This document shows, in pieces, positions 35,852-60,807 of a stretch of DNA of 64,000 nucleotides (the stretch's first letter is position 1; every line of letters begins with the position of its first letter). The position numbers were made by a program, and so were the translations under genes. The DNA is taken from positions 32,001 through 96,000 of the IMG/VR virus record IMGVR_UViG_3300022927_000008; one strand, written 5' to 3'. The notes below the pieces were generated by a model that searched no databases, was not told where the DNA came from, and saw nothing but the letters and a program-made list of their open reading frames with translations. This stretch comes from a virus.

Positions 35852-37477
35852 TTAATACATTCCAGACATAGCTCCAACCTCATCTTGATTTTCTTGAGGT
35901 TTATTAACTACAGTACATTCTGTTAACAAAATAGTACCTGCAATTGAAGCTGCATTTTCGAGAGCACAACGCGTAACTTTGGTAGGATCAATAATACCTT
36001 TTTTAAGGAAATCATCAAACTTACCAGTTTTAATATTGTAACCTATATTAGCATTTTCAGCTGATGTAGTACTAAATTCGATGCGGGGAGCATCTTCTAT
36101 ACCAGCATTTATAAGGATTTGTCTAAAGGGTTTACGCAGAGCTGCATTCATAATAGCACATCCTAGTTTTTGGTCATCGTTAGTAGTTTTACACGTTACG
36201 TTTTCACTAGAACGAAGCAATGCTACTCCCCCACCAGGTACAATACCTTCTTCAATAGCCGCTTTAGTAGCTTGAAGAGCATCATCAACTCTATCTTTAC
36301 GTTCACGCATTTCAGTTTCAGTGTTCCCACCTACATGGACAACAGCTACTCCACCTGTAAGTTTAGCTAAACGCTCTTGGAGTTTTTCAGTTTCAAAAGG
36401 TGAAGTAGAATTTTCAATTTGAGATTGAAGTTGGGCACACAGCCCCTCAATAGCTTCTTCGGTACCTGCACCATCAACAAGAGTAGTTGATTCTTTAGTG
36501 ACAGTAACTGTACGGCACTCACCTAACCAATTTAGGTCAAACTTATCAAGTTTCATACCTTTGTCTTTATCAACAACAGTACCACCTGTAAGGGTAGCCA
36601 TATCATTCATAAGCAAAGTACGACGATCACCAAAATCAGGGGCTTTAACACAGCATACGTTCAAAATACCTCTCATTTTATTAACAACAAGTGTAGCAAG
36701 TGCTTCACCATCAATATCTTCAGCAACAATAAGAAGTGATTTAGCTTGCTGTGATAGATTTTCAAGGAGGGGGAGCAAATCTTTTACAGTAGTAATTCTA
36801 CCGTTATAAAAAAGAATAGCTGCATCCTTGAGTACACAACTCATATTGTCATTGTTAGTAACAAAATAAGGTGATTTATAGCCCCTATCAAATTGTAGGC
36901 CCTCTACTGTTTCAAGGTAGGTTTCACCTGTACGTGACTCTTCAATAGTTACTACACCATCACGTCCAACTTTTTCCATAGCAGTAGCAATCAACTCACC
37001 TACCTCTTCATCATTATTAGCTGAGATAGTAGCTACCTGGCGGAGTTGCTTTTCGCTAGAAATATCTTGAGATATCTCCCTAAGATAATCTACATGGGCT
37101 TTAACACATACATCAATACCACGTTTAATCTCTACAATGTTATGTCCCTTATCACTGTAGCGCATACCTGCATTTACAATTTCACGGGCCAGCAAAGTAG
37201 AAGTGGTAGTACCATCACCTGCTTGTTCAGCAGTTTTAATAGCAGCCTGCTTAACCATTTGAGCACCCGTATTTTCAACAGTATCCTCAAGTTCAATAGC
37301 TTTAGCTACAGTTACTCCATCCTTAGTACTTTGGGGAACACCTTGTTCATTTTGGATAACAACATTACGACCATTTGGCCCCAAAGTAGTTACGACTGCA
37401 TCTGCGAGTTGATTAACCCCACTAATTAATTTTTTACGGGAGTCGTCTCCGTAGTTTACGATAGTTGTTTTATTCAT
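35852..37477 (-). CDS. groEL: Chaperonin GroEL
   Basis: [29 protein letters not shown]. Confidence 0.97.
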
Positions 37478-37761
37478 TTTTCAATAATTCCTAAAATTTT
37501 ATTTTCTTCAATCATGTAGTATTCCTGCCCTTCATAGTCTACTTTAGTAGGACCCATTTGGGGAAGAAGTGCAATATCCCCTACTTTTATAGTAGTCTCA
37601 ATAAAGTGTCCCATACCTGAATAGTAACCAGGACCAACAGATACTACTTCACCTTTAAGGTTTTTTTCTTTGCCCATATCAGGAACAATAATGCTCCCAT
37701 GGACACTTTCTTCTTCTTCGATCGGTTTTATAATAACCGCGTTAAATAATGCTTTTACCAT
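37474..37761 (-). CDS. groES: Co-chaperonin GroES
   Basis: GSIIVPD, GEVVSVGPG, KVGD; adjacent to groEL. Confidence 0.93.
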   Translation of the reverse strand: MVKALFNAVIIKPIEEEESVHGSIIVPDMGKEKNLKGEVVSVGPGYYSGMGHFIETTIKVGDIALLPQMGPTKVDYEGQEYYMIEENKILGIIEK

Positions 37762-38015
37762 TACAAAAAGTGTTGTTTAAATTCGTTTTTAATATTTCTA
37801 AGTTCAATAATATAATCCTTAATACTAGTATAAGAACTTTGTTTCATTTTATTTTCAACAACCTTATTAAGTGCTGCTTCGAGGCTACTACAATGTCCTA
37901 TACAGGAATCATAAGGTGTACCACTATCTGGCATGATTGTTTTGTAAACAGAATAGTTGTAATCATCAACTTGGATGAAATACTCACCGAGGAGTGGGTC
38001 TTTAATAAAATTCAT
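37761..38015 (-). CDS. Hypothetical protein
   Basis: 84-aa ORF after a promoter. Confidence 0.6.
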   Translation of the reverse strand: MNFIKDPLLGEYFIQVDDYNYSVYKTIMPDSGTPYDSCIGHCSSLEAALNKVVENKMKQSSYTSIKDYIIELRNIKNEFKQHFL

Positions 38016-38039
38016 AACTTTGTTTTTTCTAATACGCGG

Positions 38040-38070
38040 GAATATACGAAAGGATCTTCAGGACACCAAC
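38040..38070 (-). promoter_or_regulatory. Class-I promoter (no box)
   Basis: GTTGG-N15-TTCGTATATTC. Confidence 0.7.
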
Positions 38071-38081
38071 CCTAAAGTAAA

Positions 38082-38522
38082 TTACTTAATAGTAATTGAT
38101 TTTGGTTTTGATTCAAGTGCAAACGGGATACTAATTACAAGCAAACCATTTACCATTTCAGCATTAGCTTTAGCTAGATTAAACCTACGGGAGATTTTCC
38201 AACCTAAATTGAAGTTACTTTTTTTAATACCTGAGTGGTAGTAGCGGGTTCCATTTTCTTCAGTTTGGGTTGATGGGGTGGGTTTTCCTTTGTCATAGGA
38301 AAGTCTAAGAACATCCCCTTCAATGTTAATGTTTACATCTTTTTTATCAATACCCGTACAAGCTACTTCGAGTGTAAGGCCATTTTGATCTTCAAATACA
38401 TCAATAGGATGTGTTACTGTGGGTCGACTAGGCTTATCAAATGTACCTTGTGAGTCGAAAAAATTTCTAACTAGTACATCAAGTGGACTAGTATAATTTT
38501 CATTAAATAATACGTGTGTCAT
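38082..38522 (-). CDS. Small heat shock protein Hsp20
   Basis: Alpha-crystallin motif A.M.NGLL.I.IP. Confidence 0.9.
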   Translation of the reverse strand: MTHVLFNENYTSPLDVLVRNFFDSQGTFDKPSRPTVTHPIDVFEDQNGLTLEVACTGIDKKDVNINIEGDVLRLSYDKGKPTPSTQTEENGTRYYHSGIKKSNFNLGWKISRRFNLAKANAEMVNGLLVISIPFALESKPKSITIK

Positions 38523-43394: not shown

Positions 43395-43645
43395 TAGTTT
43401 TGATTATACATATCGAGGTAGGCTTGCTTTGAATGTACCCCCATTTTTCTAGTTACTTCATTACCCATACCATCAATTAAAACTACAGCAGGGATACTTC
43501 TTATCCCATAGTGGCTTGATATTTCAGGACTATTGTCTATGTTTATTTTTTGAACGTTTGCTTCTTGGGCAACTTCTTCCATTACAGGACCTAATACTTT
43601 ACAAGGAGTGCACCAAGGGGCACTAAAATAAATTAATTTTTTCAT
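43394..43645 (-). CDS. Thioredoxin
   Basis: WCTPC, I.SIP. Confidence 0.92.
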   Translation of the reverse strand: MKKLIYFSAPWCTPCKVLGPVMEEVAQEANVQKINIDNSPEISSHYGIRSIPAVVLIDGMGNEVTRKMGVHSKQAYLDMYNQN

Positions 43646-43893
43646 ACTAATTCTTCAATTATACCTACTACTTCACTTATTATAAGTAAAATAACAGCTG
43701 TTAACATATTAAAAGGAATAAAACCATACCCCAATATACGTATCCCTGATTTTATAAATGAGAGAACACGATGCCATTTTTGGTCTGGCATTTTGTCTAT
43801 GTTTTTGGCTTTAGGGGTAGTTGTGAGAATTTTTTTATATCTAGTATGGGAGTAAGTATTTCCCTTTAGGGCTTCATTTAATCCATCACTCAT
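43642..43893 (-). CDS. Small membrane protein
   Basis: Hydrophobic C-terminus. Confidence 0.6.
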   Translation of the reverse strand: MSDGLNEALKGNTYSHTRYKKILTTTPKAKNIDKMPDQKWHRVLSFIKSGIRILGYGFIPFNMLTAVILLIISEVVGIIEELV

Positions 43894-44396
43894 TTTAATT
43901 CATCTTTAGTAAAAAATTGTTTAAGATCGGGTCTAAAGTAATTTATATTTTTCATTACTTTACGATCACGCGAGCGGTAAACAATATACTTATCGCCAAC
44001 CTTTTCATAATGGCAGGGTTCACCTTGCTCTTCGGATCTCTTTTCAACTGTTGCTCGTGCCTCATCTTCACTCGAGCAAGCTTTTGATAGGTTAGAGGCT
44101 TGAACTTCTTGATAGGCGGGCCAAATTTTATCCTTAAGGCCATGTAACATAACTCCATTCCCCAATGAGACGTAAGCAATGTCGCACAAAGCGTCCAAAA
44201 CTTCAACGATGTCACCTCGTTGACATGCCTCTCTATATTCCTCAAGTTCCTCCAGTACGAAGTTGTAAACGAACTCCCACTCTTTTGTTTCGGGTATAGT
44301 AGGTTCATAATTGTTTGGTTTATTCATTAATTGATTAAACTCTTCCACTTCATCAACAAAAGGGACTTTGGTAAATAACTCTAATTGTTCACTCAT
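43890..44396 (-). CDS. MazG/PRA-PH-like NTP pyrophosphohydrolase
   Basis: EELEE...EVLDALCD, EV..SNLSK. Confidence 0.85.
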   Translation of the reverse strand: MSEQLELFTKVPFVDEVEEFNQLMNKPNNYEPTIPETKEWEFVYNFVLEELEEYREACQRGDIVEVLDALCDIAYVSLGNGVMLHGLKDKIWPAYQEVQASNLSKACSSEDEARATVEKRSEEQGEPCHYEKVGDKYIVYRSRDRKVMKNINYFRPDLKQFFTKDELK

Positions 44397-44401
44397 AACT
44401 A

Positions 44402-45097
44402 TTATATTTGATGCCCTCCGTTATTGATTTTTAAACTATCAAAAAACTCTTTACGGGCTTGATTACTATCATCTCTAAATACTCCACTTGCTTTAGTGGT
44501 AACCATCGCTGCACCTGAGTGCTTAATTCCTCTGCAACTTACACAGTTGTGGGTTGCAACTACAGTAACAATAACCCCTAAATTACCTTCACATACTTTT
44601 TCTACACCTTGGTGAATAGCAGATGTAAGCTGTTCTTGGATTGCTCCTCTACGACCAAAGTGTTCTACAATCCGGTTTAATTTAGACAAACCAATTACTC
44701 TTCCTTCTGCACCTGCAACGTAACCAATATGAACAACTCCATGAATAGTTTGGTGATGATGGGAACACATACTAGTAAGGGGAATATTACGTTCAATGAC
44801 GATACCGTCATAACCATCACTAGGAAAAGACGTAATATCAGTGAATCCATCATACCTACCCGCCCATAAATCATTTACATATGCCTTTGCTACTCGTTTT
44901 GGGGTTTCCATTGAATTGGGATCATTTCTCCAATCACATTTTAAAGCATCTAGAAACCTACTATAGGCATCTGCTGCTTCATTAATCATAACTTCTTTTT
45001 CATGGGGGGTAAGTGGACGATCCATTGCAGCCCCATTTGCATAACCTGTAGGTACACACTCAATATCGTTGTGTAACTTTCTTCGTTTGTTTTCCAT
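44402..45097 (-). CDS. folE: GTP cyclohydrolase I
   Basis: TPKRVAK, SMCSHH, GLSKLNR, HNCVSCRG. Confidence 0.95.
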   Translation of the reverse strand: MENKRRKLHNDIECVPTGYANGAAMDRPLTPHEKEVMINEAADAYSRFLDALKCDWRNDPNSMETPKRVAKAYVNDLWAGRYDGFTDITSFPSDGYDGIVIERNIPLTSMCSHHHQTIHGVVHIGYVAGAEGRVIGLSKLNRIVEHFGRRGAIQEQLTSAIHQGVEKVCEGNLGVIVTVVATHNCVSCRGIKHSGAAMVTTKASGVFRDDSNQARKEFFDSLKINNGGHQI

Positions 45098-45609
45098 TAT
45101 ATAGTATAAATTGTACTTAAATTTCTATTGTGGCCCTTATCATCATCCATACCATAACCTATATACCAAGGATCAAATACAGAATCAGTAGGTTGGTATA
45201 AGATATGATAAACTTTATCAAAATCCCCGCTTTCCTTATAAATTGCTACAACAGGAGTAACTGTTTTTGGTTCTTTAACTGAGAGGAATTTAGAGACTGC
45301 TTTCATAGTATTACCTGAATCTAAAATATCGTCTACAAGATAAACATGTTTGCCTTTAATTTTAGTTTCTAAGTCTTTACTAACTACTAAATCACCTTGT
45401 TTTCTACCAAAGTAAGATTTGCAACGAATAAAATCTATTTCAATAGGGATTGTAATTTGTTTTACCAAATCACTAAAGAACATAAATCCACCATTTAGTA
45501 TACAAACTAATACTACAGGGGTAGGATCATCTTTATGTTCGTCATTAATTTTTTTAGCTATTAACTTTAATTTAAAGTCTAAGTCTTTTTCACTTATTGC
45601 TTGTTCCAT
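45097..45609 (-). CDS. hpt: Hypoxanthine/guanine phosphoribosyltransferase-like
   Basis: ILNGG..F..DL, VDDILDSGNT PRPP loop, IGYGMD. Confidence 0.88.
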   Translation of the reverse strand: MEQAISEKDLDFKLKLIAKKINDEHKDDPTPVVLVCILNGGFMFFSDLVKQITIPIEIDFIRCKSYFGRKQGDLVVSKDLETKIKGKHVYLVDDILDSGNTMKAVSKFLSVKEPKTVTPVVAIYKESGDFDKVYHILYQPTDSVFDPWYIGYGMDDDKGHNRNLSTIYTI

Positions 45610-45630: not shown

Positions 45631-45664
45631 GAGGGCTACTCCCCGTTAAGGGAGTAGCCTTCTT
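45631..45664. terminator. Strong hairpin, probable terminator
   Basis: GGCTACTCCC-CGTTAA-GGGAGTAGCC. Confidence 0.75.
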
Positions 45665-45689: not shown

Positions 45690-46172
45690 TTAGAATTTTA
45701 GGCCAAACCCAATTCTCAAGTTAGCGGTTCCATCTGTAGTGTTATAAACTACACGAGGGTCTAAGTACATATTATTAGTAGTAGTAGTAAACAATTTACC
45801 AACACCAATATTTAGTCCAAAGTCGGTTGTTAGGTTTTGAGTACCAATGTACCCAAAAAAACCTTTGTAAAAATAACGAGCATGGACATCTAAATTCAAA
45901 TCACCTGCTACAGTAGCACCTGTGCTATCAGTAGTGGTTCCTTGATTTAAAGAAAATCCTGCCATAACGTCATCAGTAAAAGCATACCCTACAGTGGGGG
46001 TAAGCATCCACTGAGTCCATGCAGTATTAGAGATGTCACCAGTACCTATGTACCAATCTCCTTTAGCGTTATCGTGGTTGTGGGTTTCACAACACGTAGT
46101 AGTATCACCTTGGGCGGCAGCAAATGAAGTTGCTCCCAAGATTAATGTAAGAGTTAAAAATAAATTTTTCAT
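45690..46172 (-). CDS. Outer-membrane beta-barrel protein
   Basis: Signal peptide MKNL..AAA, alternating beta strands, C-terminal Phe. Confidence 0.75.
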   Translation of the reverse strand: MKNLFLTLTLILGATSFAAAQGDTTTCCETHNHDNAKGDWYIGTGDISNTAWTQWMLTPTVGYAFTDDVMAGFSLNQGTTTDSTGATVAGDLNLDVHARYFYKGFFGYIGTQNLTTDFGLNIGVGKLFTTTTNNMYLDPRVVYNTTDGTANLRIGFGLKF

Positions 46173-46215
46173 ATTAAATTTGGTTTTATATATATATGTA
46201 ACGTGGTTAATTGTA

Positions 46216-46824
46216 TTATGTAATATCGTCTGATTCAATTAGGGTATATGTAAATGAATTACCCCAAATGTCTCTAGATTGTCTAACAAGGCCCATAAAA
46301 TCTTGCCAATCATCATTAGAAGCAATTACTTGGCAACCTGCAGACCATTTATCGATTTGAGTAGAAGTTTTACCTTCATATTTAGTTGCTCGGTGAATGT
46401 TAATTCCAAAAATACCTTTTTCAATATTTTCTTCATCTAGATCATAACAAACATCTAAGTTATTATCCCTGTAAACTTGTACAGGTTTTACTTGACGTAG
46501 TGCTTCGTATTTACCTTGGTGCAACCCAATTTGGTAAGTACTTCTATACTGATTAGGCTTTAAAATAGCAACACCTGATTCTTTCATAATATTTTCAACC
46601 CAATACTTGCCTGGGTCGGTTGTGCATCCGAAGCAACTATAATTCCACATACCATCTACCTTATAGGAGACAGTCATGTAGTCATCAAATTTATTAGTTA
46701 CTTCGTTTAATGTTTCAGAGTTTCTAACTCCTACTATGTTTAAATTGTAATCTCCACTTTCAAACCATTTGTATTCTTTAGACTTGACTGCGGTTTCAAT
46801 TTGTTCTCTTGTTGGACAATTCAT
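46216..46824 (-). CDS. YkuD/L,D-transpeptidase-like protein, possible lysin
   Basis: GINIH...WSAGC (H..SxGC catalytic pattern). Confidence 0.55.
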   Translation of the reverse strand: MNCPTREQIETAVKSKEYKWFESGDYNLNIVGVRNSETLNEVTNKFDDYMTVSYKVDGMWNYSCFGCTTDPGKYWVENIMKESGVAILKPNQYRSTYQIGLHQGKYEALRQVKPVQVYRDNNLDVCYDLDEENIEKGIFGINIHRATKYEGKTSTQIDKWSAGCQVIASNDDWQDFMGLVRQSRDIWGNSFTYTLIESDDIT

Positions 46825-46917: not shown

Positions 46918-47856
46918 TTAAAGTACATAATGTATTAATAATACTATTGCTACTGATACCATTAATCCTACTAATAATTTTAGGAAATCTTTAGCTACAA
47001 TAGGGAATACTTGCTTAAGATTACCCTTTTTAGTAAGGTATGTATTCAATGCTAACTCTCTACCACACAACAATCCAACAAATACCCAGGTAGTTGACAT
47101 AGGAATGTTATTTATTTGTTTAAAATAAAGTAATAGGAAAGCATACACTAAATCAATTAAAGTAGCTGATCTAACATATTTTGTATTTTGTTTGTCTAAG
47201 ACAATTTGTTGTATTTTACCTCCTTGTTGATAAAAAATCCATCCTAGACCTGCTGTAAAGAAGGTAATTACTCCTATAAGCTCTACAACTGAAAGTTGGC
47301 GAGGGAGGAATACAGCAATATTAGCTACATCATGAGACAACCAAGTAAACCATAGGAATCCTGTAGTGAACCATTGTCCTATTCTCCAATATTTTTTATT
47401 TTCTTCCTTAATATCTTTATTTTCATCAAAGAAATTAGAGATAATAAACCAAAGGGTATATGCTACTATTGCTGCTAATCCGTAACCCACTACACTTTTA
47501 AGTAGCATTTTTTCAAGTACAAAAGTAGAGGCGAATGCTGAGAGTACAAGGAATGAAGTAGATACAGGAATACCTTTTCTAGTAAGTGCAACTAGTGCTA
47601 AAGGTGCTAGTGCATGATACCACTGTACTTCTTGGAATGGTATTTTAGTTAATCTTCCATATGATATATCTCCATCATAGGCATACCACCCATAAACCAT
47701 AGTACCTATCATTACTGCAGAAGCTGCAGCCCACATAACGTACCATTTAAATTTTTCTCTGTTAGAGGCAATCCAAGTGCCTAGTGTTTGAACGCTGTCG
47801 TTAGCGATAACTGAATAACCGGCAAGGCAAAACCCTACCATTGCTAATAAACTCAT
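46918..47856 (-). CDS. PiT/PHO4-like phosphate transporter
   Basis: Multi-TM; duplicated signatures AND..GIPVSTS and HDVAN..PMSTT. Confidence 0.7.
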   Translation of the reverse strand: MSLLAMVGFCLAGYSVIANDSVQTLGTWIASNREKFKWYVMWAAASAVMIGTMVYGWYAYDGDISYGRLTKIPFQEVQWYHALAPLALVALTRKGIPVSTSFLVLSAFASTFVLEKMLLKSVVGYGLAAIVAYTLWFIISNFFDENKDIKEENKKYWRIGQWFTTGFLWFTWLSHDVANIAVFLPRQLSVVELIGVITFFTAGLGWIFYQQGGKIQQIVLDKQNTKYVRSATLIDLVYAFLLLYFKQINNIPMSTTWVFVGLLCGRELALNTYLTKKGNLKQVFPIVAKDFLKLLVGLMVSVAIVLLIHYVL

Positions 47857-47865: not shown

Positions 47866-48309
47866 TTAAATTTTAATTGAAATTCTAAATCGTATTGTGT
47901 TTGAAGTATCCCATCCTACTCTATAAACGTAGTTTTTATATGGAATATCTGTTGCTATTGCAAAATTATATATTTCGTCGAACCAAAATTCTTGTTGTAC
48001 CCAAAGTTTAAATTTTTCAAACTTATAAATTAAACGTGGTTCCCAAGTAGGTTCGTTTTTTTCTCTTTTGTAGTGAAGTGGGACACTAAATACTACTTTG
48101 TCTGTTACTTTAAAATTGTGTCTATAAGTAAATCGATTTTCACCTAAATCAGTTTTATGTCTTAATTCAAGTCCACCTTTATTGTGTATTTTATGACTTA
48201 TAGTAAGGTATGATTTACCGTTTGTTCTTAACTCATATCCTATTTTTTGGGAATGGCAAACGCTTGCTATTATAAGAACTAAATTAAATAATATAAATAA
48301 ATGTTTCAT
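47866..48309 (-). CDS. Secreted beta-rich protein, possible small porin
   Basis: Signal peptide; aromatic/basic alternating strands; co-transcribed with the transporter. Confidence 0.5.
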   Translation of the reverse strand: MKHLFILFNLVLIIASVCHSQKIGYELRTNGKSYLTISHKIHNKGGLELRHKTDLGENRFTYRHNFKVTDKVVFSVPLHYKREKNEPTWEPRLIYKFEKFKLWVQQEFWFDEIYNFAIATDIPYKNYVYRVGWDTSNTIRFRISIKI

Positions 48310-48311: not shown

Positions 48312-48971
48312 TTATACGTATCCTAAAGCGTTCGAGATCACTGGGAATTTGTTTATAAAGTGTTTTTTAATCTCTTTAGCTACTAATTGGATTTCTTTTT
48401 GAGCATGTTCATCATCTCTTAGTTCAAGAAAATGAATCCAACTACGAATACTACCTGTCATATGAATTTTAGTAGTTGTAGCAAGTGGAAGAACCATACG
48501 TGCTTGTTCACGAGCTACTCCTGCTTCTAAAAGCTCATTATATAAAGCATGAGTTCTTTTTAAATGAGCATCTATAACTTCAGATGCTTTACCTTTAAAA
48601 TAACTTTGATTGTTATTAAAAATTTCAGGATTAATTATTTCTGTTGAACTTTGTCTATTATCTTCACATTGTGCTCTTAGTTCAATAGGTTCAAACATAC
48701 CTTCAAGCTTGTTAACATCTTGGTATCGTTGGCTAAACTCTTGAAATGAAAATGAACGGTGTCTGATTAATTGTATACCTATTGCTTTTGATGTTTCGAT
48801 TTCAAAAGTAACATGTCCATGTTCAAATGGAGACCAATGTTTATGTTTAATTAGGTAATTAAGAAGACCTTCAGGTTTGCTTTTTTTGTCTTTACGTGAG
48901 CTAGATACACGTGCTACTTCTACTATATGCTCTTCAGCATTTGGTGTAACATTTAATAGCGTAACTTTCAT
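48312..48971 (-). CDS. thyX: Flavin-dependent thymidylate synthase
   Basis: H.SPFEH, RHRSFSFQEFSQRY, E.AR.VLP. Confidence 0.95.
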   Translation of the reverse strand: MKVTLLNVTPNAEEHIVEVARVSSSRKDKKSKPEGLLNYLIKHKHWSPFEHGHVTFEIETSKAIGIQLIRHRSFSFQEFSQRYQDVNKLEGMFEPIELRAQCEDNRQSSTEIINPEIFNNNQSYFKGKASEVIDAHLKRTHALYNELLEAGVAREQARMVLPLATTTKIHMTGSIRSWIHFLELRDDEHAQKEIQLVAKEIKKHFINKFPVISNALGYV

Positions 48972-49022: not shown

Positions 49023-50498
49023 TTAACGTAAAATTATAACGTGTCCTCTTAATTCTTTTACTTCAGCTGTCCCTACTTTCCTTGCTTGGAACCACCACAA
49101 ATACATTTCATTTTGTACATAATAATCACCCCCTCTAAAATTACCATTCCAAACTAAGTTATTTACATCATAAGATTCCCATACTATATTTCCCCATCTA
49201 CTTATTACTTGAACCTTAACATCAGTCCAACATTCAGGATCTAGTACTATCTCCCACCCATCATTATACCCATCATTATCTGGGGTGAAGGCGTTAGGAA
49301 TGTAAACATTACATTCTTTATTCCTAATTTCACTACAAGGTAAACCTGTTTCACAATCTATTTCTACAAACTCATATATAGTAACTGTATCACTTTGTAT
49401 TATATAAATTGTATCTACAGAATAGATGTATTCTGTTTCAATTACAGTATCAGTTACAAAAATAAATTCTGTCTCAGTTACAGTAATTGTATCTGTTATA
49501 AATATAGTTTCAGTAACTGTGTCCGGGGGTAGTTCTATATAGAGTGTATCAATTTCAGTTACAATAATTGTATCGGGAGGTAGCTCTATATAAAGTGTAT
49601 CAATTTCAGTTACAGTAATAATAAGAGTATCTATTTCATATATAGTATCAGGGGGTAGTTCTATGTAAACAGTATCACACTCAACTTCTTCAGGACAATC
49701 AAAAGCATTAAAATAAAAATCCCAATAACCGTCTGAGTTTTGGTATTCATTACATAGTTCTTCACCATTAGGAGTATCACAATAAATACAAAACCCACCT
49801 GGTTCAAACCATTGGTTGTTGTAATTACAAGCTATTGGGTTATTACATTCATCTAATATTAATGGTTCTTCGGGTTCCTCGCAAGGTCCTACGATTATCC
49901 AATTGTCTAAAAAGTTAGTATCTTCATACAACCCACTCCCATAACTGGTCCCATCACCATTTGCCCCTACTTCTGCCCAACCCCCATCTTCAGCATACAT
50001 TGTAGGCCCATAGCTAATCTGCCATATTACTGCTTGAATGCTATAACCTTCATCATACCAATATTGTAAATTATTGGCAAGTTGAGAAGTTGTATTGATA
50101 TTTGTTGATTGATAAACATTATCCAAAGGAAAAGTTAAAGTATCCCCCGTATAGTAAGGGGGTTGTAATTCAGGACCATAGTTATTAGTCCAATTACCAA
50201 ATATTTCAGTTGTAGTAGCTGAGTATAACCATCCAGGATGATTACTGTTATCAGGGATAGATATTCCACTAGGGAAATCCCAACCAATATTCATAGCATT
50301 ACAGTTACTATCTATTGCTTGAAACCCAAATTGAATTTCAGATATACCATCAGGCCCACCTGTCCCCCCACAGTTATTTGTATTGTTAAAAGCTACAGTA
50401 ATTGTAGCATCATTAACATTAAAATCAAGTATTTCAAGATCACATTGTCCTAATATACTAAATGGTAAAAAAAGTAAAGCTAATAATAATTTCTTCAT
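49023..50498 (-). CDS. Secreted protein with T9SS type-B (CHU_C / gliding motility) C-terminal domain and DT-rich stalk
   Basis: Signal peptide; YIPNAFTPDNDGYND..I.SRWG...G.V.ILR. Confidence 0.85.
   Translation of the reverse strand: MKKLLLALLFLPFSILGQCDLEILDFNVNDATITVAFNNTNNCGGTGGPDGISEIQFGFQAIDSNCNAMNIGWDFPSGISIPDNSNHPGWLYSATTTEIFGNWTNNYGPELQPPYYTGDTLTFPLDNVYQSTNINTTSQLANNLQYWYDEGYSIQAVIWQISYGPTMYAEDGGWAEVGANGDGTSYGSGLYEDTNFLDNWIIVGPCEEPEEPLILDECNNPIACNYNNQWFEPGGFCIYCDTPNGEELCNEYQNSDGYWDFYFNAFDCPEEVECDTVYIELPPDTIYEIDTLIITVTEIDTLYIELPPDTIIVTEIDTLYIELPPDTVTETIFITDTITVTETEFIFVTDTVIETEYIYSVDTIYIIQSDTVTIYEFVEIDCETGLPCSEIRNKECNVYIPNAFTPDNDGYNDGWEIVLDPECWTDVKVQVISRWGNIVWESYDVNNLVWNGNFRGGDYYVQNEMYLWWFQARKVGTAEVKELRGHVIILR
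49380..49680 (-). repeat. Imperfect tandem repeats encoding (EIDTLYIELPPDT)-type units
   Basis: Repeated gtatcaatttcagttaca and tctatata strings. Confidence 0.8.
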
Positions 50499-52495
50499 TA
50501 ATGTTGTTGGTGATAGATTTTTTTACTAATCACAAAACCATTTGTCCATTCTTGAACTATAAAATAGATTCCTGTATCTAGATAATCATTATATTGTACT
50601 TCTTGTCCTTGCAAATTATATAGTTTTTGAGTAACAACTTCTTCTCCTGCCTCTTGTACTAATCGTCTAAAACTATCTAATGGGGGAGACATTAAACCTG
50701 TTCCACATTCAGTATCAAAATTAGCAATAGCATCTAATATATCATCTACCCCTACAACCCCATCTTGGTTGATATCAAATTGGTTACAAGGTTCTACTTC
50801 AAGTCCATAATATTGTATAATTTGTAGTATATCACTTACCCATACAAATCCATTACCATCTACATCCCATGGACAATCGTTAGGGGGACAAAAAGAGGGT
50901 ATTACATAAAAGGGTAAAGGTTCACCATCAGCCCACCCTCCTTGGATTGAGTTTAATGTATCATTCCCACTTATAATTGAGATAAGCCCATACTCATCAG
51001 GATTATCTACACAATAATAATGTAACCCATTACCAAAAATATCTTCTAACACTAAAACATAGTTACCTTCAGGTAAACAAAAACTATAAGTTTCAGATTC
51101 ACAAGAATAATCAGCATTAGTATATGTCTGGCTTCCTACCCCACTAATAGCATCTCCTATAGGATTGTTTAAACTATCAGCCTCGTATAAAACCCAATGG
51201 AATCCGTAGGGAAGGGCGTCAAATTGTATATTAATATCAATAAGAGAACCTTCATAATTGTCAAGTTGAACTGACTGAGTGTTATTATCTGCGTAGACAT
51301 CTCCTAAGGCATCTACATTAATTTCAATATCTACTAGACCATAACCTACTTCAAAATTAGGTATAGTTATAGTTTCACTTTCACCAAATCCTAAATTACC
51401 TGTCCAAATCATAAATAACTCTTCACCATTAATTGTATAATTAATAGTGGTTTCAGTTAAAGTATCACCATAACTAGTTAATATAAATTCTATATCTTGT
51501 GTAGGGTCACAACCAAGATTTGGTATAGTAACACCACTTACACCAGCATCTACACCATCAATAGCACCACAAGCTAGTGTGTTATTTACTACCCCTGGGC
51601 GAGCTGTTTCTAGTCTGCTAAGCATTCTTAAAGCTTGACCCTGGGTAAAACTATCCATGCATTGGTCATTAGAATAATCCATGAAATTCTCCACCAATGT
51701 TTCAGGACATGATAAAGGTCCACATCCCGCAGAACCTGTAGTTGGTGGGGTATCGCATACAGCATCACCTTGGCTGACGCAATTACCAGTAGGATTACAC
51801 GTAGAAGTATTGTGGAATGTATGGAATAACCCACAATAATGTCCTAGTTCGTGTACTAGTGTTCTATTTAAAGCATAATTATTTTGATACCCAGTTATTC
51901 CAAAGTAATTTGTACCTACAAATACCCCATAATTTGAAGGGGCTAAATAAGCAAATCCTAAAGGACTAGTAAAAGGTGCAACAAAAATATTACAATAATT
52001 ACTACGATCATACCCAATTAAATTAGAAACATTTACATTATTTAAGTAAAAATCAGAAATGTCACCGAAACCTAAATCATCCCAATTATAATATCTAATA
52101 CCTTCAATTGGAGCACCACTAGTAGATAAATTTGCAATACAAAAATCTATTTCTGTATTTGCTGTGGGGTCGTCACTAAACTCACCTGCAAAGTTTTGGT
52201 TGGCATTATCAATAGCTTCTTGAACATATTCAATAGGTAAATGGTTATCCACTCCATAGGGCTCACCAAGGTGAATAATATGGACAATAACCGGTACAGT
52301 TATAGGAAGATCAGGCATAGATGAAGCCCTTTTAGCTTCTTCTGCTTCCTTAGCTATTTTTTCAAGTTTTAAATAGCTTCGTTTAAATTTAGGATCTTGT
52401 AGCTGTTGCTCAAAAAGAGCATCTGTGCCACATCTTTCTTGCCCATAAAGGGGCAATGTCATAAGTAGTAAAAATAGGAAAATCAGTTTTTTCAT
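50498..52495 (-). CDS. M43 zinc metalloprotease with dockerin/EF-hand-like and CTD-like tail
   Basis: Signal peptide, RCGT cysteine switch, HELGHYCGLFHTF, NFMDY, DVDGNG/DINQDG. Confidence 0.88.
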   Translation of the reverse strand: MKKLIFLFLLLMTLPLYGQERCGTDALFEQQLQDPKFKRSYLKLEKIAKEAEEAKRASSMPDLPITVPVIVHIIHLGEPYGVDNHLPIEYVQEAIDNANQNFAGEFSDDPTANTEIDFCIANLSTSGAPIEGIRYYNWDDLGFGDISDFYLNNVNVSNLIGYDRSNYCNIFVAPFTSPLGFAYLAPSNYGVFVGTNYFGITGYQNNYALNRTLVHELGHYCGLFHTFHNTSTCNPTGNCVSQGDAVCDTPPTTGSAGCGPLSCPETLVENFMDYSNDQCMDSFTQGQALRMLSRLETARPGVVNNTLACGAIDGVDAGVSGVTIPNLGCDPTQDIEFILTSYGDTLTETTINYTINGEELFMIWTGNLGFGESETITIPNFEVGYGLVDIEINVDALGDVYADNNTQSVQLDNYEGSLIDINIQFDALPYGFHWVLYEADSLNNPIGDAISGVGSQTYTNADYSCESETYSFCLPEGNYVLVLEDIFGNGLHYYCVDNPDEYGLISIISGNDTLNSIQGGWADGEPLPFYVIPSFCPPNDCPWDVDGNGFVWVSDILQIIQYYGLEVEPCNQFDINQDGVVGVDDILDAIANFDTECGTGLMSPPLDSFRRLVQEAGEEVVTQKLYNLQGQEVQYNDYLDTGIYFIVQEWTNGFVISKKIYHQQH

Positions 52496-52576: not shown

Positions 52577-53350
52577 TTAAACTCCACGTTCTGTATTATA
52601 AGCTATAATATGGTCTCGACCAGTCATATTATATCCATGCTCAGCGACCATTTCAAATACTTTAGGGTACATTTCAACTAGTGTTTCTCTTGTATCCCCT
52701 GCAGGCATAACAAATGTTTTATTTTTAGGAATATTCATTTTAACTCTAAATTCCTCAATTTCAGCTAAACACTCATCGGTACCATCCCAAACTGGTTTAT
52801 AATGATAATCACTATGAAAATCAATCATTTTCTGAATGTTCTCATAATGGAGTCTAAACTTGTTATGCTGAGTGACAAACCTTTCATCAACCACTTTACC
52901 ACCGGGAGTAGTAATACCCACACGAGGGACAGAATTAGAAAACTTAGGGCTAAGGGATACGAGACCAAGTGGAAAATCCGTTTCCACGAAGTGAGACCCT
53001 TCGGTTTCGATTGTAATGAGAATTCCTCTTTCGTTGGCAAAATGGGTAAGTTCATTTACAAGGGCAGCATGCATTGTTGGTGAACCCCCTGTTAACATCA
53101 TCTCTTTTACTTGAGGATTCTCATCATAAATATTGATAATGTCATTAAATGTAAACGTACCTTTTTCAGGGTGGATTGAAGTATACCACGAATCACACCA
53201 CCCACCTTCACCAAACCAACAGCGGTGGGTACATCCTGTAGTTCGAACGGCAATAGTGGGGCGCCCGAAACGGGAGCCCTCACTTTGCACGCATCGATAT
53301 ACCTCTAATACAGGTAATACTTTATCGTAATCTTCTATCCTTTTAAGCAT
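52577..53350 (-). CDS. queE: 7-carboxy-7-deazaguanine synthase (radical SAM)
   Basis: Q.EG...G.P, CTHRC..WCD, LTGG.P, IET.G, SPK. Confidence 0.9.
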   Translation of the reverse strand: MLKRIEDYDKVLPVLEVYRCVQSEGSRFGRPTIAVRTTGCTHRCWFGEGGWCDSWYTSIHPEKGTFTFNDIINIYDENPQVKEMMLTGGSPTMHAALVNELTHFANERGILITIETEGSHFVETDFPLGLVSLSPKFSNSVPRVGITTPGGKVVDERFVTQHNKFRLHYENIQKMIDFHSDYHYKPVWDGTDECLAEIEEFRVKMNIPKNKTFVMPAGDTRETLVEMYPKVFEMVAEHGYNMTGRDHIIAYNTERGV

Positions 53351-54000: not shown

Positions 54001-54459
54001 TTATTCAGCATAGATTGCTGTGTTTTTTCCGTGTTCTCTAAATTCTACTTGCATAACCTTAACACGTCCATCTGTTTCTTCTAATACAAACTTGTTAAGT
54101 TTCTCATAAATATACTGAGCAAAACGTTCTGCTCCAGTTGCTGGTATTTCTCTAAGTTGAATTACACCTGCTTCATCCATTCTACGAAATGATTCTAGGA
54201 ATGGATCGTCTTCAGCTACAAGCATAGTATGATCAAACATATGGTCCATCCAAGCTTTAGGATTCATACCATCAATTTCGGTTTTAGCACGTTTCATACC
54301 CCCAAAATCCCAAACCCAATTACGTTCGTCTAGTTCCCCTTTAAACCATACTTTAAACGAGATTCCATAACCATGGAGAAATCTACAATGTGTGCCTTCT
54401 GCTTTAGCTTGACGAAACACACAGCTAAACCCATCAAATACTTTAGTTGATATAAACAT
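54001..54459 (-). CDS. queD: 6-carboxytetrahydropterin synthase
   Basis: HCRFLHGY, DFG, FDH, AE. Confidence 0.9.
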   Translation of the reverse strand: MFISTKVFDGFSCVFRQAKAEGTHCRFLHGYGISFKVWFKGELDERNWVWDFGGMKRAKTEIDGMNPKAWMDHMFDHTMLVAEDDPFLESFRRMDEAGVIQLREIPATGAERFAQYIYEKLNKFVLEETDGRVKVMQVEFREHGKNTAIYAE

Positions 54460-55295
54460 TAGGCTTCAGCTAAAACTTGTTCAACATGTTGTTTTACAGT
54501 ATTCCATGTAACGGGTCCTCTCTCATCAGCATATTGTACCGGATCCTCTGTCCCCAACTTAATAAACGCTTCGACACGTTCCACCGAAGAAGCAGATTTA
54601 TAGTCGCTGTACCACTTATCACCAAAACTAAGGGGCTTATAAGAAGTATTTGTAAGGGAATAAACTCGGTTGAAATCAAGTCCCAATTCATCGCAGCATC
54701 TTCTTCCATCAAGCAAAATATCATACTTATCCCCACTGAGGTAAGGGGTATGATAGGTAACGCGCCCAGCGTTCCAATTACCTTCGGTGAAAGCTGCATA
54801 GTCAGCGTCCCTGAACTCTTGTCTACAATCGGGGTATATAGCATGATCACCTGCGTGAATACCCATCGCAATATGTACTTCAGTATCTTTTTCATTTGCT
54901 ATTGATAGTGCTACCGCTTGAATTATTGATGAGAAAATTTTATTTCTATTAGGAACAACTGTTTCCTTCATGTTTTCCTGTTCATAGTGTCCTTCAGGCA
55001 CCTCATCTCCACCTTCTACAAGGGCACTATTAAGCATAGGAGCCAAACCATCAAGTTTAATTACTCCATATTTAATTTCTGGGTATTTTTCCCTAAATTC
55101 ACCTAGTGGGGATTGTTCAAGTCTAACTGTATTAAGGTGGCTTACTAATTCACGAGCACGGGAGAGTTCAACTTTATGTTTTTGTCCATAATCAAAACTC
55201 AAAGCTGTAACCTCGTAGCCTTCTGCTAATAGTCTTAGCAAAACTGTGGAGCTGTCCATTCCTCCACTTAAAGATAAAACTGCTTGTTTATTCAT
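54459..55295 (-). CDS. queC: 7-cyano-7-deazaguanine synthase
   Basis: SGGMDS, FDYGQKH, VPNRN, YPDCR. Confidence 0.92.
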   Translation of the reverse strand: MNKQAVLSLSGGMDSSTVLLRLLAEGYEVTALSFDYGQKHKVELSRARELVSHLNTVRLEQSPLGEFREKYPEIKYGVIKLDGLAPMLNSALVEGGDEVPEGHYEQENMKETVVPNRNKIFSSIIQAVALSIANEKDTEVHIAMGIHAGDHAIYPDCRQEFRDADYAAFTEGNWNAGRVTYHTPYLSGDKYDILLDGRRCCDELGLDFNRVYSLTNTSYKPLSFGDKWYSDYKSASSVERVEAFIKLGTEDPVQYADERGPVTWNTVKQHVEQVLAEA

Positions 55296-56110: not shown

Positions 56111-56620
56111 TTAAAAATATAATTCTTTATTTTTTGGTGGTCGACCTCTACGGGGTGCTGTAGTGGGACGATTGTATTTACCGTATTTGTCTTCACAGTA
56201 ATTATAAAATTCCTCCAGTGTACCTCCAACCTCAACTACATCATGATCAAAATCTTGTTTGGTCATACGAAATGTGGTAGTAAAATCTTTACGTAATTGG
56301 GTCAGATTTTCCTTTTCATACTTTTCATGATCATCAACAAGACGACGGCGACGGTTTTTATCAAGACGGGTCTCAGCAGCTTGGGCTTGACCATCACCTT
56401 CATATTTTTTGTATTTTTGATCAATTTCCCATTGACAATAATGGATTTGCCACAAATAAGGACTTGGGTCGTAGTCACCATTACGAATTTTGTCAATCAA
56501 TGGAGCATAATTGTGTAAAGACTGACCCTTACGGCCCCATCTACGCCACCAAAAGAATTGATTGTAATTCAATTTTTGGAGTTGCGACAACTGCTCTTCG
56601 ATAACCTCAATTGTGTGCAT
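56111..56620 (-). CDS. Hypothetical protein with C-terminal AT-hook
   Basis: PRRGRPPK; first gene of the que operon. Confidence 0.6.
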   Translation of the reverse strand: MHTIEVIEEQLSQLQKLNYNQFFWWRRWGRKGQSLHNYAPLIDKIRNGDYDPSPYLWQIHYCQWEIDQKYKKYEGDGQAQAAETRLDKNRRRRLVDDHEKYEKENLTQLRKDFTTTFRMTKQDFDHDVVEVGGTLEEFYNYCEDKYGKYNRPTTAPRRGRPPKNKELYF

Positions 56621-58107: not shown

Positions 58108-59817
58108 TCACCCATCACAAGAAACGCATTCTGCAGTACGGGATCCTAAATCTCCTTTTATCACGGAATCTGTGCGAAGATAATATAAAGTTTTAACTCC
58201 TAATTTCCAAGCCTCCATATGACACTGGTTAATCCATTTAGGGGAATCAGTAGGGTCAAATGAAAGGTTTAGAGATTGTGTTTGATCAATATATTTTTGT
58301 CTAATAGCTGCTTGCCTAACTAATTCAAGTTGATTTACCTCACTAAATGTTAAATATACCTCCTTTTCGTCAGGTGATAATATATCTTCAGATAAATTTT
58401 GAACAGAACCATTGTCTGCTAAGATTTGATCCCATACTTTATCTGTGTTGTGTCCTTTACCTTCTAATAAACATTCCAATTCTTTATTTTTAACAATAAA
58501 TGTTCCTTTAGCACCATTAAAAGTGTAGATATTAGCTGGGATGGGCTCAATACCTGCTGAACAATTGTTTAGGCGAGAATTTGAGACTGTAGGTGCAATA
58601 GCAAGTAAGTGGGTATTTCTCATACCTGTACCCTTACACCAAGTAGGTTCACCATATTCTTCAGCAAGTTGTCTTGAAGTAGCTTCTGCTTTACTTCTAA
58701 TATCACTAAAAATAGTATGGGTCCAGGCTGTTGAAGCAATAGAATTAAATGGCAATCCTTTTTGTTGAAGGAATGAGTGCCAACCCATTACACCTAATCC
58801 TAATGCTCTACCTTTTTTAGCGTGTCTCCAAGTACGAATAAGTGATTCTTTACCTGCACTTTTATCAATAAACTCTTGCATTACACCATCTAAAAAGCGA
58901 ATAGATGTTTCTACTACATCAGTATCTTTCCACTCATCGTATTTTGCGAGGTTTAAAGAGCTTAAACAGCAAATAAAACTATGCTCTTCATCTGTGTGGA
59001 GTGTAATCTCAGTACAAATATTAGTCATACTGACATCAAGGTTATTCATAGCATATGCTAAAGGGTTGTTTTTATTAACATTATCCTTAAACATAATATA
59101 TGGTTCACCTGTTTCTACACGTGTTTTAAGTATCTCAAGCCAAAGTTTCATAGCATTGCTGTCCCTATCTTGTAGACGTCTCATAAAAGTATCATCTACT
59201 ACAACACATTGGTGTAGATTAAGACACTGTCTATTAGGATCACCTTTAGGTCTACGAATCTGCATAAACTCATCAATATCAAGGTGATTGATATCTAAGT
59301 TTACAGAAGCAGCACCTCTACGAACTGAACCTTGGTTAGTTGCTATGATAGCTGAGTCGTAGATTTTACACCATGGTACTACACCTTCACTTTTACCATT
59401 ACCTGTAATTGTAGTTCCTCTAGGGCGAATTCTAGAAACACTAATACCTACACCACCACCTAAAGCGGTAAGTTTCATAAGTTCAGCATTTGTTAATCCA
59501 ATTCCCCTAACGCTATCAGGTGTATCAATACCAAAACAGCTGATGGGAAGACCCCTATCGGTCCCAGTGTTAGATAACACGGGAGAAGCAAGGCCAATCC
59601 AACCGTTCCAAATATATCTGTAGAACTTATTTTCCAGATCTGGTCTATTAATACGTTCTGCGATCGCTTTCGCAACTCTTCTGTAGGCTTTCTTTGGTGT
59701 TTCATCCGGTAATAAATACCCTTTAGATATAGTTGCTACGCCTACTTCATCCATCCATTCAGGGTAATCCTTTCCTGCAACCCAATTTGTTGTATCTGCT
59801 ACTAAATTTCCGTCCAT
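58108..59817 (-). CDS. nrdA: Class I ribonucleotide reductase alpha (short, no ATP cone evident)
   Basis: PISCF, GGGVG, TNICTE, IAPT, YYLR, C-terminal CVSC. Confidence 0.95.
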   Translation of the reverse strand: MDGNLVADTTNWVAGKDYPEWMDEVGVATISKGYLLPDETPKKAYRRVAKAIAERINRPDLENKFYRYIWNGWIGLASPVLSNTGTDRGLPISCFGIDTPDSVRGIGLTNAELMKLTALGGGVGISVSRIRPRGTTITGNGKSEGVVPWCKIYDSAIIATNQGSVRRGAASVNLDINHLDIDEFMQIRRPKGDPNRQCLNLHQCVVVDDTFMRRLQDRDSNAMKLWLEILKTRVETGEPYIMFKDNVNKNNPLAYAMNNLDVSMTNICTEITLHTDEEHSFICCLSSLNLAKYDEWKDTDVVETSIRFLDGVMQEFIDKSAGKESLIRTWRHAKKGRALGLGVMGWHSFLQQKGLPFNSIASTAWTHTIFSDIRSKAEATSRQLAEEYGEPTWCKGTGMRNTHLLAIAPTVSNSRLNNCSAGIEPIPANIYTFNGAKGTFIVKNKELECLLEGKGHNTDKVWDQILADNGSVQNLSEDILSPDEKEVYLTFSEVNQLELVRQAAIRQKYIDQTQSLNLSFDPTDSPKWINQCHMEAWKLGVKTLYYLRTDSVIKGDLGSRTAECVSCDG

Positions 59818-59820
59818 AAC

Positions 59821-60807
59821 TTAAAATATTGCTTCAGCATCCCATTCCATATGGCCCTTGCTGTAATTTGTGACTCTGTTTGCGAAGAAATCAGTGTGCT
59901 GTTTACCTGCTGATAAACTATCAAACCATTTCATTCTTTTAAGTGCATTAGGGTCAATTCCATTAACTACACCCTCATATCCTAAATCCCCCATTTTGGT
60001 ATTAACTCTATGTTTAATAAATGAGATTAAATCTTCTTTAGAACACCCTTCAAGATCACCCAATTCATATACTTTCTCAATAAACTCAAGTTCGAGGTGA
60101 AGTGAAAGTAATGCAGCTTCTGTTATTGCTGTTTTGAGCTCCGGAGTGTTGAGCTCAGGGTTTTCCTGGATAAGTGTTCTAAATAACCAGCATCCTGCTT
60201 CTGAGTGCATTGATTCGTCTCTAATGCTCCACTCAACAATTTGTCCCACTCCCTTAAGCTTATTTCGCATTTTAAAAGATAGGAGTACGGCGAAAGAGGA
60301 GAATAAATTGACCCCTTCTGTGAAAGCAGAAAATATAGCGAGGGATTTAGCGATTTCGTGCCAATCTTTTTCGCCATTAAAACTATCCCTAACTGACATA
60401 AGGTTTTCAATCTTAGCCATCGTAGTTTCGTCTTCGAGAAATTCTGAAAAGTCATCAAGTCCAAGTTCTTCATTTAATAGTGAATATGCTTCCGCATGTA
60501 TTGTTTCAAAGGCCCCAAACGTTGTGGCCATCATAATTATTTCGGGTTTACGGAACCATTTAGTTACCAAACCACTCCAGTAATCGTTTACTACAGTTTC
60601 AGTTTGGGCAAAACCTTTTAAAATGGATCCTACTATATTTTTTTCGGTTTCTGTTAAGTTTTGTTTCCAATCGTTTACATCACTCATCATTGGTACTTCA
60701 GTGTGAAGCCAATGTGCCTGTTGTTGTTTTAGCCAATAATTATGTGCTTCGGGATATTCGAAGGGTTTATAGACTACTCTCTCCTGCAATAGTTTGCTGT
60801 TTGCCAT
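59821..60807 (-). CDS. nrdB: Ribonucleotide reductase beta
   Basis: ETIHAEAY, EG..LF..F, RDESMH, DFF. Confidence 0.95.
   Translation of the reverse strand: MANSKLLQERVVYKPFEYPEAHNYWLKQQQAHWLHTEVPMMSDVNDWKQNLTETEKNIVGSILKGFAQTETVVNDYWSGLVTKWFRKPEIIMMATTFGAFETIHAEAYSLLNEELGLDDFSEFLEDETTMAKIENLMSVRDSFNGEKDWHEIAKSLAIFSAFTEGVNLFSSFAVLLSFKMRNKLKGVGQIVEWSIRDESMHSEAGCWLFRTLIQENPELNTPELKTAITEAALLSLHLELEFIEKVYELGDLEGCSKEDLISFIKHRVNTKMGDLGYEGVVNGIDPNALKRMKWFDSLSAGKQHTDFFANRVTNYSKGHMEWDAEAIF

Follow-up and report, generated by a model that had tools for sequence, protein, structure and literature searches.

A FolE-coupled phosphoribosyltransferase in a predicted DpdA3-type 7-deazaguanine module of a phage, and its possible role in guanine recycling

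Introduction

The phages carrying the guanine transglycosylase DpdA3 are the only ones known in which every guanine of the DNA is replaced by a 7-deazaguanine. Full substitution has been reported for the DpdA3 phages immuto, phiST and CP220, with fdPreQ1 in place of all G in the Flavobacterium phage immuto (PMC10516641). According to the published model the free base is inserted via DpdA3 and all such modifications are post-replicative; DpdA3 has not been reconstituted, and the description makes no mention of a phosphoribosyltransferase (PRTase) (PMC10516641). The present analysis concerns a 64,000-nt stretch (positions 32,001 to 96,000, hereafter the window) of the 100,680-bp IMG/VR virus record IMGVR_UViG_3300022927_000008, which is approximately 69% complete, and in particular a triplet of genes encoding a PRTase of the HPRT family (hpt), the GTP cyclohydrolase I FolE and a MazG-like nucleoside triphosphate (NTP) pyrophosphohydrolase.

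Based on its gene content, the triplet is assigned to a DpdA3-type 7-deazaguanine DNA-modification system, of which it would represent the downstream half, and this uncultured marine phage probably replaces its DNA guanine by a 7-deazaguanine base. The module belongs to the published DpdA3 kind, and the order PRTase-FolE-MazG is already present in immuto. The comparison of sequences points to the guanine-type PRTase as an accessory step that in this phage group is almost always coupled to FolE and has repeatedly been swapped in type, and that in another lineage is fused to FolE; a literature search on PRTases linked to DpdA or FolE in phages found no paper that mentions it. We favour, with moderate confidence, the reading that the PRTase returns the guanine expelled by DpdA3 to GMP, and subsequently to GTP for FolE. 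Such recycling, if true, would account for a base-exchange reaction that runs to completion; the alternative, if true, is that the phage makes a modified nucleotide for its polymerase to use, and the two readings predict sharply different outcomes. Since immuto is cultured and has the same arrangement, it represents a ready test system.

Linkage of the PRTase with FolE, the que genes and DpdA3

The genetic context was scrutinized in 80 of the 116 IMG/VR contigs that carry a homolog of the window PRTase (45-100% identity). FolE was present in 63 of the 70 loci with at least 900 nt of downstream sequence, being directly adjacent in 56, and MazG in 52 of the 55 loci with at least 3.5 kb downstream. 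Upstream, QueC/D/E were found in 50 of 51 loci with at least 5 kb of sequence, which bears out the co-occurrence of hpt with que genes that a reading of the window made from the sequence alone (the sequence-only reading) had proposed as a check, and DpdA3 in 33 of the 36 loci with 10 kb. Such an arrangement is not a matter of chance. Two PRTase contigs in which no DpdA3 was detected are fragments (23% and 40% complete). The PRTase homologs are spread over more than 1,300 protein clusters, and the phage is one member of a large marine group.

The same linkage was seen from the side of DpdA3, relatives of which are present in at least 559 contigs. Among the best 80 of these, a PRTase was found in 35 of the 36 DpdA3 loci in which FolE is visible, and the PRTase slot was occupied by either an HPRT-type or a Gpt-type enzyme, never by both. 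A quick maximum-likelihood tree was built from 68 DpdA3 sequences, excluding loci that lack a PRTase and those whose DpdA3 is partial. The PRTase type switches 7 times on this tree; well-supported branches require at least five of these switches, and some sister pairs differ in type. Guanine is the substrate common to the two subfamilies, and such repeated non-orthologous replacement argues for selection on function. Among 50,697 GenBank phage records HPRT-type PRTases are essentially absent; of the 18 matches, many are unannotated short fragments or belong to bacterial-type records. FolE itself occurs in approximately 385 GenBank phage records, where linkage to a PRTase is a minority feature (approximately 11%) in contrast to the near-universal linkage in the DpdA3 group.

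A further association of the two functions was found outside the DpdA3 phages. The Gpt-type PRTase of immuto has homologs in the phiST group, where it is a separate gene near the ribonucleotide reductase (RNR), and it also matches the N-terminal approximately 115 aa of a "GTP cyclohydrolase I" of approximately 300 aa in some 34 cultured phages, including VpKK5, PaMx25, NP1, JG012, Stenotrophomonas phage ply2008005c, Sphingomonas phage MMDA13, and Xanthomonas and Variovorax phages (see Table 1 for two examples). This domain, similar to xanthine-guanine PRTase (XGPRT), keeps the motifs RGG, VDDIxDSGxT, DK and WVVFPW, and a profile of its alignment matches XGPRT structures with an E-value of 3e-19. 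The fusion phages display the Queuovirinae gene order queE-queC-queD-folE-dpdA, and the Queuovirinae relatives CAjan and iggy carry dPreQ0 solely at GA/GGC motifs (PMC10484667). Motif-specific dPreQ0 is explained only by post-replicative exchange, as a polymerase route cannot give it.

Properties of the PRTase

The PRTase matches PF00156 with an E-value of 5.7e-24 (84.7 bits, Pfam cutoff 26.3), its best NCBIfam model is the HGPRTase model TIGR01203 (E 2.4e-34), and its nearest solved structures are the bacterial Hpt enzymes 1J7J and 1G9S (E about 1e-24 to 5e-24). Among 61 homologs (45-100% identity), D93, D94, D97, G99 and T101 of the phosphoribosyl pyrophosphate (PRPP) motif V-D93-D94-I-L-D97-S-G-N-T101 are invariant, D97 being the residue that we take to be the Asp contacting the purine N7 in hypoxanthine-guanine PRTases. 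The catalytic loop II residues K64-S65-Y66 are conserved in all 61 homologs and the stacking W148 in 59, while G151, G153 and D155 (G-Y-G-x-D) are kept and R162-N163 are invariant or nearly so.

A precedent for PRTases acting on deazaguanine bases, as invoked by the sequence-only reading, does exist: TubE is a proven PRTase specific for 7-carboxy-7-deazaguanine (CDG), and ToyH has been proposed to act on preQ0 (PMC6112128). The TubE authors used the Sulfolobus solfataricus GpT-2 structure 4Z1O as their structural alignment partner (PMC6112128), and our comparison was made indirectly, via this structure. The window PRTase matched 4Z1O with an E-value of 3.9e-7, which is weak beside the bacterial Hpt matches; by these indirect structure-match scores, its nearest relative is not of the GpT-2 type that served as the reference for TubE.

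The que genes, DpdA3 and the predicted DNA base

The genes for QueE, QueD, QueC and DpdA3 are located 7-10 kb upstream of the triplet on the same strand. The window DpdA3 shares 36% identity with CP220 gp056, shows a weak match to DUF6610 and contains the conserved motifs DNS, HLLGC and DTSNP. Its neighbour encodes a protein ending in PRRGRPPKNK, whose RGRP core was found in 31 of 31 distinct homologs, even at 30-40% overall identity, and which is syntenic with DpdA3. Judged by this motif, the AT-hook protein might assist DpdA3 as a DNA-binding partner or regulate it, and its motif and position count toward an exchange at the level of DNA; a complex prediction for the two proteins (score 0.00) gave no verdict and is counted neither for nor against.

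The whole 100.7-kb record was searched for the accessory genes of other DpdA3 phages. Neither QueF, DpdN and the kinase of immuto nor the HD/P-loop protein and the kinase of CP220 had a homolog in it, and no DpdL homolog was found in this phage. Nor did the record, within its approximately 69% completeness, reveal a nucleotide kinase or a small P-loop ORF: the P-loop ORFs comprise a 359-aa ORF, DnaB, a clamp loader and a 263-aa ORF outside the window, and no others. With QueF, DpdN and DpdL all undetected, dPreQ0 or its amide (ADG) is the base to be expected in the DNA.

The MazG-like protein

The metal-binding motifs E49-E50-x-x-E53 and D68-x-x-x-D72 of the MazG-like protein are invariant among 20 homologs, and its PF01503 score is 40.3 bits (cutoff 21.3). 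Its AlphaFold2 model (pLDDT 76) has a helical core, for which the nearest meaningful fold is DR2231, a weak match (Foldseek E approximately 0.1, TM 0.42-0.5; VIA-align Z 7.0); other weak matches were HisE, the Sulfolobus MazG and many generic helical hairpins, and a PDB sequence search with the protein gave nothing significant. DR2231 is a dUTP-specific MazG-like enzyme.

MazG family members were found in 252 GenBank phage records, including Xp12 and PhiW-14, and many matches came from Microbacterium, Corynebacterium and Polaribacter phages. Because the family is widespread in phage groups that do not figure among the FolE matches, it is not specific to deazaguanine metabolism. No trimeric or dimeric dUTPase Pfam match was found in this record, and the complete immuto and phiST genomes have no trimeric dUTPase; CP220 has a dUTPase. 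The thymidylate synthase ThyX needs dUMP. The protein is most plausibly a general phage dNTP-pool enzyme, serving as a dUTPase stand-in that feeds ThyX, and not the dGTP-clearing enzyme that the sequence-only reading had proposed. We also considered the order PRTase, cyclohydrolase and phosphoribosyl-ATP pyrophosphohydrolase as an echo of HisG/HisI/HisE; this was rejected, as FolE is unrelated to HisI and PF01503 marks the MazG superfamily only.

A putative guanine-recycling loop and its alternatives

In the reading that we prefer, FolE, QueD, QueE and QueC would convert GTP into the free base preQ0, and DpdA3 would exchange a preQ0-type base for G in the phage DNA, thereby releasing free guanine. 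With PRPP, the HPRT-family PRTase would turn the released guanine into GMP, which host kinases would phosphorylate to GTP, the substrate of FolE. The loop would halve the extra guanine-nucleotide cost of the modification and clear poorly soluble guanine that would otherwise inhibit or reverse the exchange. As a rough estimate, approximately 17% of some 290,000 nucleotides per genome, multiplied by a burst of 50-100, would amount to millions of guanines per cell, that is, to millimolar amounts of a base whose solubility is presumably in the micromolar range. Taking this guanine away would spare purine and, at the same time, draw the exchange forward. The substrates, the direction of flux and the action of DpdA3 on DNA are those that we infer from the gene identities, conserved catalytic motifs, operon structure, synteny, PRTase swaps and PRTase-FolE fusions.

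The sequence-only reading had suggested for the triplet a possible route from a deazaguanine base to a nucleotide and on to the polymerase. Such a route would have the PRTase ribosylate preQ0 or CDG, host kinases and RNR with thioredoxin convert the product into a dNTP, PolB polymerise it, MazG destroy dGTP and DpdA3 mop up residual G; we consider this unlikely, and find it just as doubtful that the specificity of the PRTase has moved to a 7-deazaguanine base (preQ0, ADG or CDG), with full replacement achieved largely by the polymerase and DpdA3 polishing. The TubE and ToyH precedents speak for it, as do the co-location of PRTase, MazG, thioredoxin, RNR and PolB in one replication and nucleotide module, the divergence of the PRTase, and the conservation of the MazG-like protein between the window phage and immuto (82% identity, versus 39% for DpdA3); moreover, the DpdA3 phages are 100% replaced while the activity of DpdA3 is unproven (PMC10516641). 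It is opposed by the invariance of the N7-contacting Asp and the conservation of the canonical purine apparatus apart from the variable O6 position, by the weak match to GpT-2, the nearest solved homolog of TubE, and by the interchangeability of two guanine-type subfamilies in the same slot. In addition, the Gpt-like domain is joined to FolE at the start of the pathway and does not follow QueC, in phages whose relatives motif-modify their DNA (PMC10484667), CP220 is without a PRTase, and DpdA3 is itself part of the module. The record yielded neither an NMP kinase nor ToyE/F/G-like tailoring genes, many MazG-family matches come from phage groups that are not among the FolE matches, and a route through the ribonucleotide would be expected to put the analogue into RNA as well. 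What stands from the sequence-only reading is the triplet itself and its place in a deazaguanine pathway; the evidence favours guanine recycling over the nucleotide route that it had suggested.

Two further explanations were considered. MazG might make dGMP from dGTP, with DpdA3 swapping the base on dGMP and kinases rebuilding the dNTP, the PRTase still recycling guanine. This would fit the full replacement, the compact size of DpdA3 (260-275 aa), the HD/P-loop and thymidylate-kinase-like proteins that flank DpdA3 in CP220 and the homologous kinase and MazG beside DpdA3 in immuto, and it has an analogy in MazZ, which supplies dGMP to PurZ in Z-genome phages, as outlined in PMC8342488. The CP220 and immuto genes favour some nucleotide-level step in those other DpdA3 phages; in the clade of the window phage, however, no kinase or HD gene lies beside DpdA3, which has the AT-hook protein there instead, and the nearest MazG fold, itself a weak match, is dUTP-specific. 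No enzyme of the tRNA-guanine transglycosylase (TGT) family is known to act on mononucleotides, and we regard exchange at the nucleotide level as very unlikely. Ordinary auxiliary purine salvage, the simpler alternative that the sequence-only reading had allowed for, would let the PRTase raise the supply of IMP and GMP for replication, the adjacency of FolE being an inherited gene order. A canonical, Hpt-like PRTase, the many auxiliary genes of nucleotide metabolism in phages and the relatedness of the compared contigs are all compatible with it. A free-standing salvage gene is nevertheless hard to reconcile with the near absence of true HPRT homologs from the GenBank phage records, with the finding of both PRTase types almost only inside que/DpdA3 clusters, and with the repeated type replacement in the slot and the FolE fusion in an unrelated lineage, which indicate a specific functional link. 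Nucleases, furthermore, give nucleotides and not bases, so that base exchange would be the obvious source of free guanine; salvage unconnected with the modification is considered quite unlikely.

Several observations weigh against the recycling reading. The contigs compared are related phages and not independent, so part of the synteny is inherited. No PF00156 PRTase was found in CP220, reported to contain 100% dADG, nor anywhere in the DpdA3 contigs 3300030085_004825 (122 kb) and 3300027631_000014 (77 kb), both of which carry QueC/D/E and of which one is 47% and the other 75% complete; these three cases count against the PRTase as the basis of full replacement, and the two contigs are natural comparison cases for the dispensability of such a helper. 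The window PRTase reaches 118.5 bits on TIGR01203, which is under the equivalog cutoff of 150 and is the reason why it is filed as a divergent member of the HPRT family and not as an equivalog; at the O6-binding position, 33 of the 61 homologs have K and 28 have R, a variation that makes some change of specificity possible. The immuto Gpt-type PRTase and the FolE-fusion versions are without approximately 22 residues of the catalytic flexible loop, so the activity of the fusion domain is not assured. The link between the MazG-like protein and dUTP depends on a weak fold match of the model (E approximately 0.1, TM 0.4-0.5). We know of no precedent for complete replacement by post-replicative exchange. 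Finally, attempts to demonstrate the activity of DpdA3 in E. coli failed (PMC10516641), and the ADG nucleoside was reported in CP220-infected cells, according to work cited in PMC10516641.

Operon structure and gene content of the surrounding region

Nearly all genes of the window are located on the minus strand (Table 1). The ORF list places the PRTase, FolE and MazG-like ORFs in one tight operon, in which the PRTase stop codon and the FolE start overlap (TAATG). Their coordinates are identical to those of the sequence-only reading, and profile matches confirm its description of contiguous hpt, folE and MazG-like genes about 1.5 kb upstream of PolB, whose start at 42336 lies approximately 1.55 kb beyond MazG. 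A consensus scan did not include the hairpin or the AT-rich box ahead of the PRTase among its listed elements.

Table 1. Features of the window (coordinates in the window, except for the two fusion genes of other phages)
Feature	Coordinates	Strand	Support
Family B DNA polymerase (PolB), split into ORFs of 561 aa and 308 aa	39728..42336	-	phrog_262 E 3.7e-116
Membrane and coiled-coil protein, 345 aa	42357..43394	-	translation; 51% identity to immuto26A_86
Thioredoxin, 83 aa	43394..43645	-	PF00085 E 9.7e-15
Small membrane protein, 83 aa, start overlapping the MazG stop (ATGA)	43642..43893	-	ORF list, translation
MazG-like all-alpha NTP pyrophosphohydrolase, 168 aa, with conserved C-terminal beta extension	43890..44396	-	PF01503 E 4.2e-10; phrog_671 E 2e-27
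GTP cyclohydrolase I FolE, 231 aa, translationally coupled to the PRTase	44402..45097	-	PF01227 E 2.7e-41; phrog_2197 E 4e-56
HPRT-family 6-oxopurine PRTase, 170 aa, first gene of the operon	45097..45609	-	PF00156, TIGR01203
GC-rich terminator-like hairpin, then AT-rich promoter-like box, just upstream of the PRTase start	45634..45659	-	direct reading of the sequence
ThyX thymidylate synthase	48312..48971	-	PF02511 E 1.1e-53
QueE-like radical SAM enzyme (CDG synthase)	52577..53350	-	TIGR03365 E 8e-15
QueD (CPH4 synthase)	54001..54459	-	PF01242 E 6e-16
QueC (preQ0 synthase)	54459..55295	-	PF06508 E 2.8e-36
DpdA3-type guanine transglycosylase, 272 aa	55292..56110	-	39% identity to immuto DpdA3, E 4e-58
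Protein with C-terminal AT-hook (RGRP), 169 aa, directly upstream of DpdA3	56111..56620	-	translation
Class I ribonucleotide reductase NrdA and NrdB	58108..60807	-	PF02867 E 1.4e-102; PF00268 E 4.9e-63
Gpt-FolE fusion, Vibrio phage VpKK5 gp32	nt 5998-6900 of the examined stretch		annotated FolE only
Gpt-FolE fusion, Stenotrophomonas phage ply2008005c gp47	nt 5754-6647 of the examined stretch		annotated FolE only

Downstream of the triplet, the MazG gene, the 83-aa membrane protein ORF, the thioredoxin gene and the 345-aa ORF overlap or abut their neighbours. The 83-aa membrane protein is syntenic in 51 PRTase loci and gave no match in a Pfam scan; no Pfam family matched the 345-aa protein. The 561-aa PolB ORF matches PF00136 and PF03104, and the 308-aa ORF shows weak PolB matches; the two overlap by 4 nt, and related IMG/VR loci share the split, PolB_N and PolB_C being adjacent in every case. 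The proximity of PolB as a meaningful feature was rejected: the same block adjoins PolA in immuto, and Queuovirinae clusters abut a polymerase too, so it marks the replication module only. GroEL (541 aa) and an Hsp20-family small heat-shock protein are encoded at 35852-38522 (minus strand), and immuto has GroEL/GroES near its polymerase.

Upstream of the que and DpdA3 genes are located NrdA, NrdB, DnaB and a flap endonuclease, and the two halves of the module are separated by ThyX and several type IX secretion cargo genes. The region 49023-53972 (minus strand) encodes secreted proteins within and between the que halves, namely a CHU_C protein, an M43 metallopeptidase and a fasciclin-domain protein, the gene of the latter being positioned between QueD and QueE. 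The CHU_C domain, a type IX secretion signal, together with the matches to Flavobacterium and Cellulophaga phages points to a host from the Bacteroidota. The ORFs at 45690-46238 and 47866-48309 have signal peptides and the look of outer-membrane beta-barrels. A 312-aa ORF at 46918-47856 (minus strand) has a match to the PHO4 phosphate-transporter family (PF01384, E 2.2e-9) in its C-terminal third and could represent an auxiliary gene for phosphate uptake that is truncated or divergent. Farther away, a sugar-metabolism block (21908-33693, minus strand) contains GT2 and GT4 glycosyltransferases, an RgpF-like protein, a DegT aminotransferase fragment, two hexapeptide acyltransferases, a methyltransferase and a GH16 hydrolase, with a PD-(D/E)XK nuclease at its upper end.

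Comparison with other modification and nucleotide systems

The closest isolate is immuto, which shares with the window the local order of PRTase, FolE and NTP pyrophosphohydrolase near the replicative polymerase; its genes are arranged as PRTase (60), FolE (61), DUF4494 (62), NTP pyrophosphohydrolase (63), a small ORF, DpdA3 (65), DpdN, a kinase-like gene and QueF. Identities between the two phages amount to 67% for QueE, 69% for QueD, 63% for QueC, 62% for FolE, 39% for DpdA3 and 82% for the MazG-like protein. The immuto PRTase, however, is a short XGPRT/Gpt-type enzyme barely alike to the HPRT-type enzyme of the window (E 1e-4), and the polymerase is PolA in immuto and a split PolB in the window phage. 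The window DpdA3 lies, unlike that of immuto, at the far end of the module behind the AT-hook gene. As immuto has QueF, DpdN and the kinase, for which the window record has no homologs, preQ0 or ADG rather than fdPreQ1 is predicted for the window phage. The DpdA3 gene of CP220 lies between genes for an HD-phosphohydrolase/P-loop protein and a thymidylate-kinase-like protein (gp055-gp057, nt 10865-13358 of the examined stretch), and the kinase-like gene 68 of immuto (nt 12762-13286 of the examined stretch) is homologous to the CP220 kinase (32%, E 9e-20); the window phage has no counterpart of the CP220 HD/P-loop protein or of the CP220/immuto kinase.

The Queuovirinae-like fusion phages resemble the window in having a 6-oxopurine PRTase module joined to FolE in a que/dpdA cluster near a polymerase. 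They differ in that this module is an XGPRT-like domain of approximately 115 aa without the flexible loop and covalently fused, in their other type of DpdA and in the partial, motif-specific modification of their relatives, whereas the window PRTase is a separate gene of the HPRT type.

Compared with the bacterial Hpt of E. coli and Salmonella, the window PRTase keeps the catalytic motifs and, apart from the variable O6 position, the purine-binding ones; unlike these, it is phage-encoded, coupled to FolE and under the equivalog cutoff, and its homologs vary between K and R at the O6 site. The TubE and ToyH clusters, like the window, combine a purine-type PRTase with FolE, QueD and QueE homologs, and a nucleotide hydrolase is present in both, the Nudix protein TubG in the tubercidin cluster and the MazG-like protein in the window (PMC6112128). 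These clusters contain GMP-reductase and decarboxylase tailoring genes and no enzyme for insertion into nucleic acid (PMC6112128), a role assigned to DpdA3 in the window; among the window ORFs scanned, the GMP reductase, decarboxylase/adenylosuccinate and phosphatase tailoring families were absent. The PurZ/MazZ/DatZ system of phage S-2L and the dCTPase and hydroxymethylase of T4 likewise place a MazG-like enzyme or dNTP pyrophosphatase near base-modification genes and the polymerase, as in the window. These pre-replicative systems differ from the window phage, in whose approximately 69%-complete record no nucleotide-level synthetic enzyme or dedicated kinase was identified.

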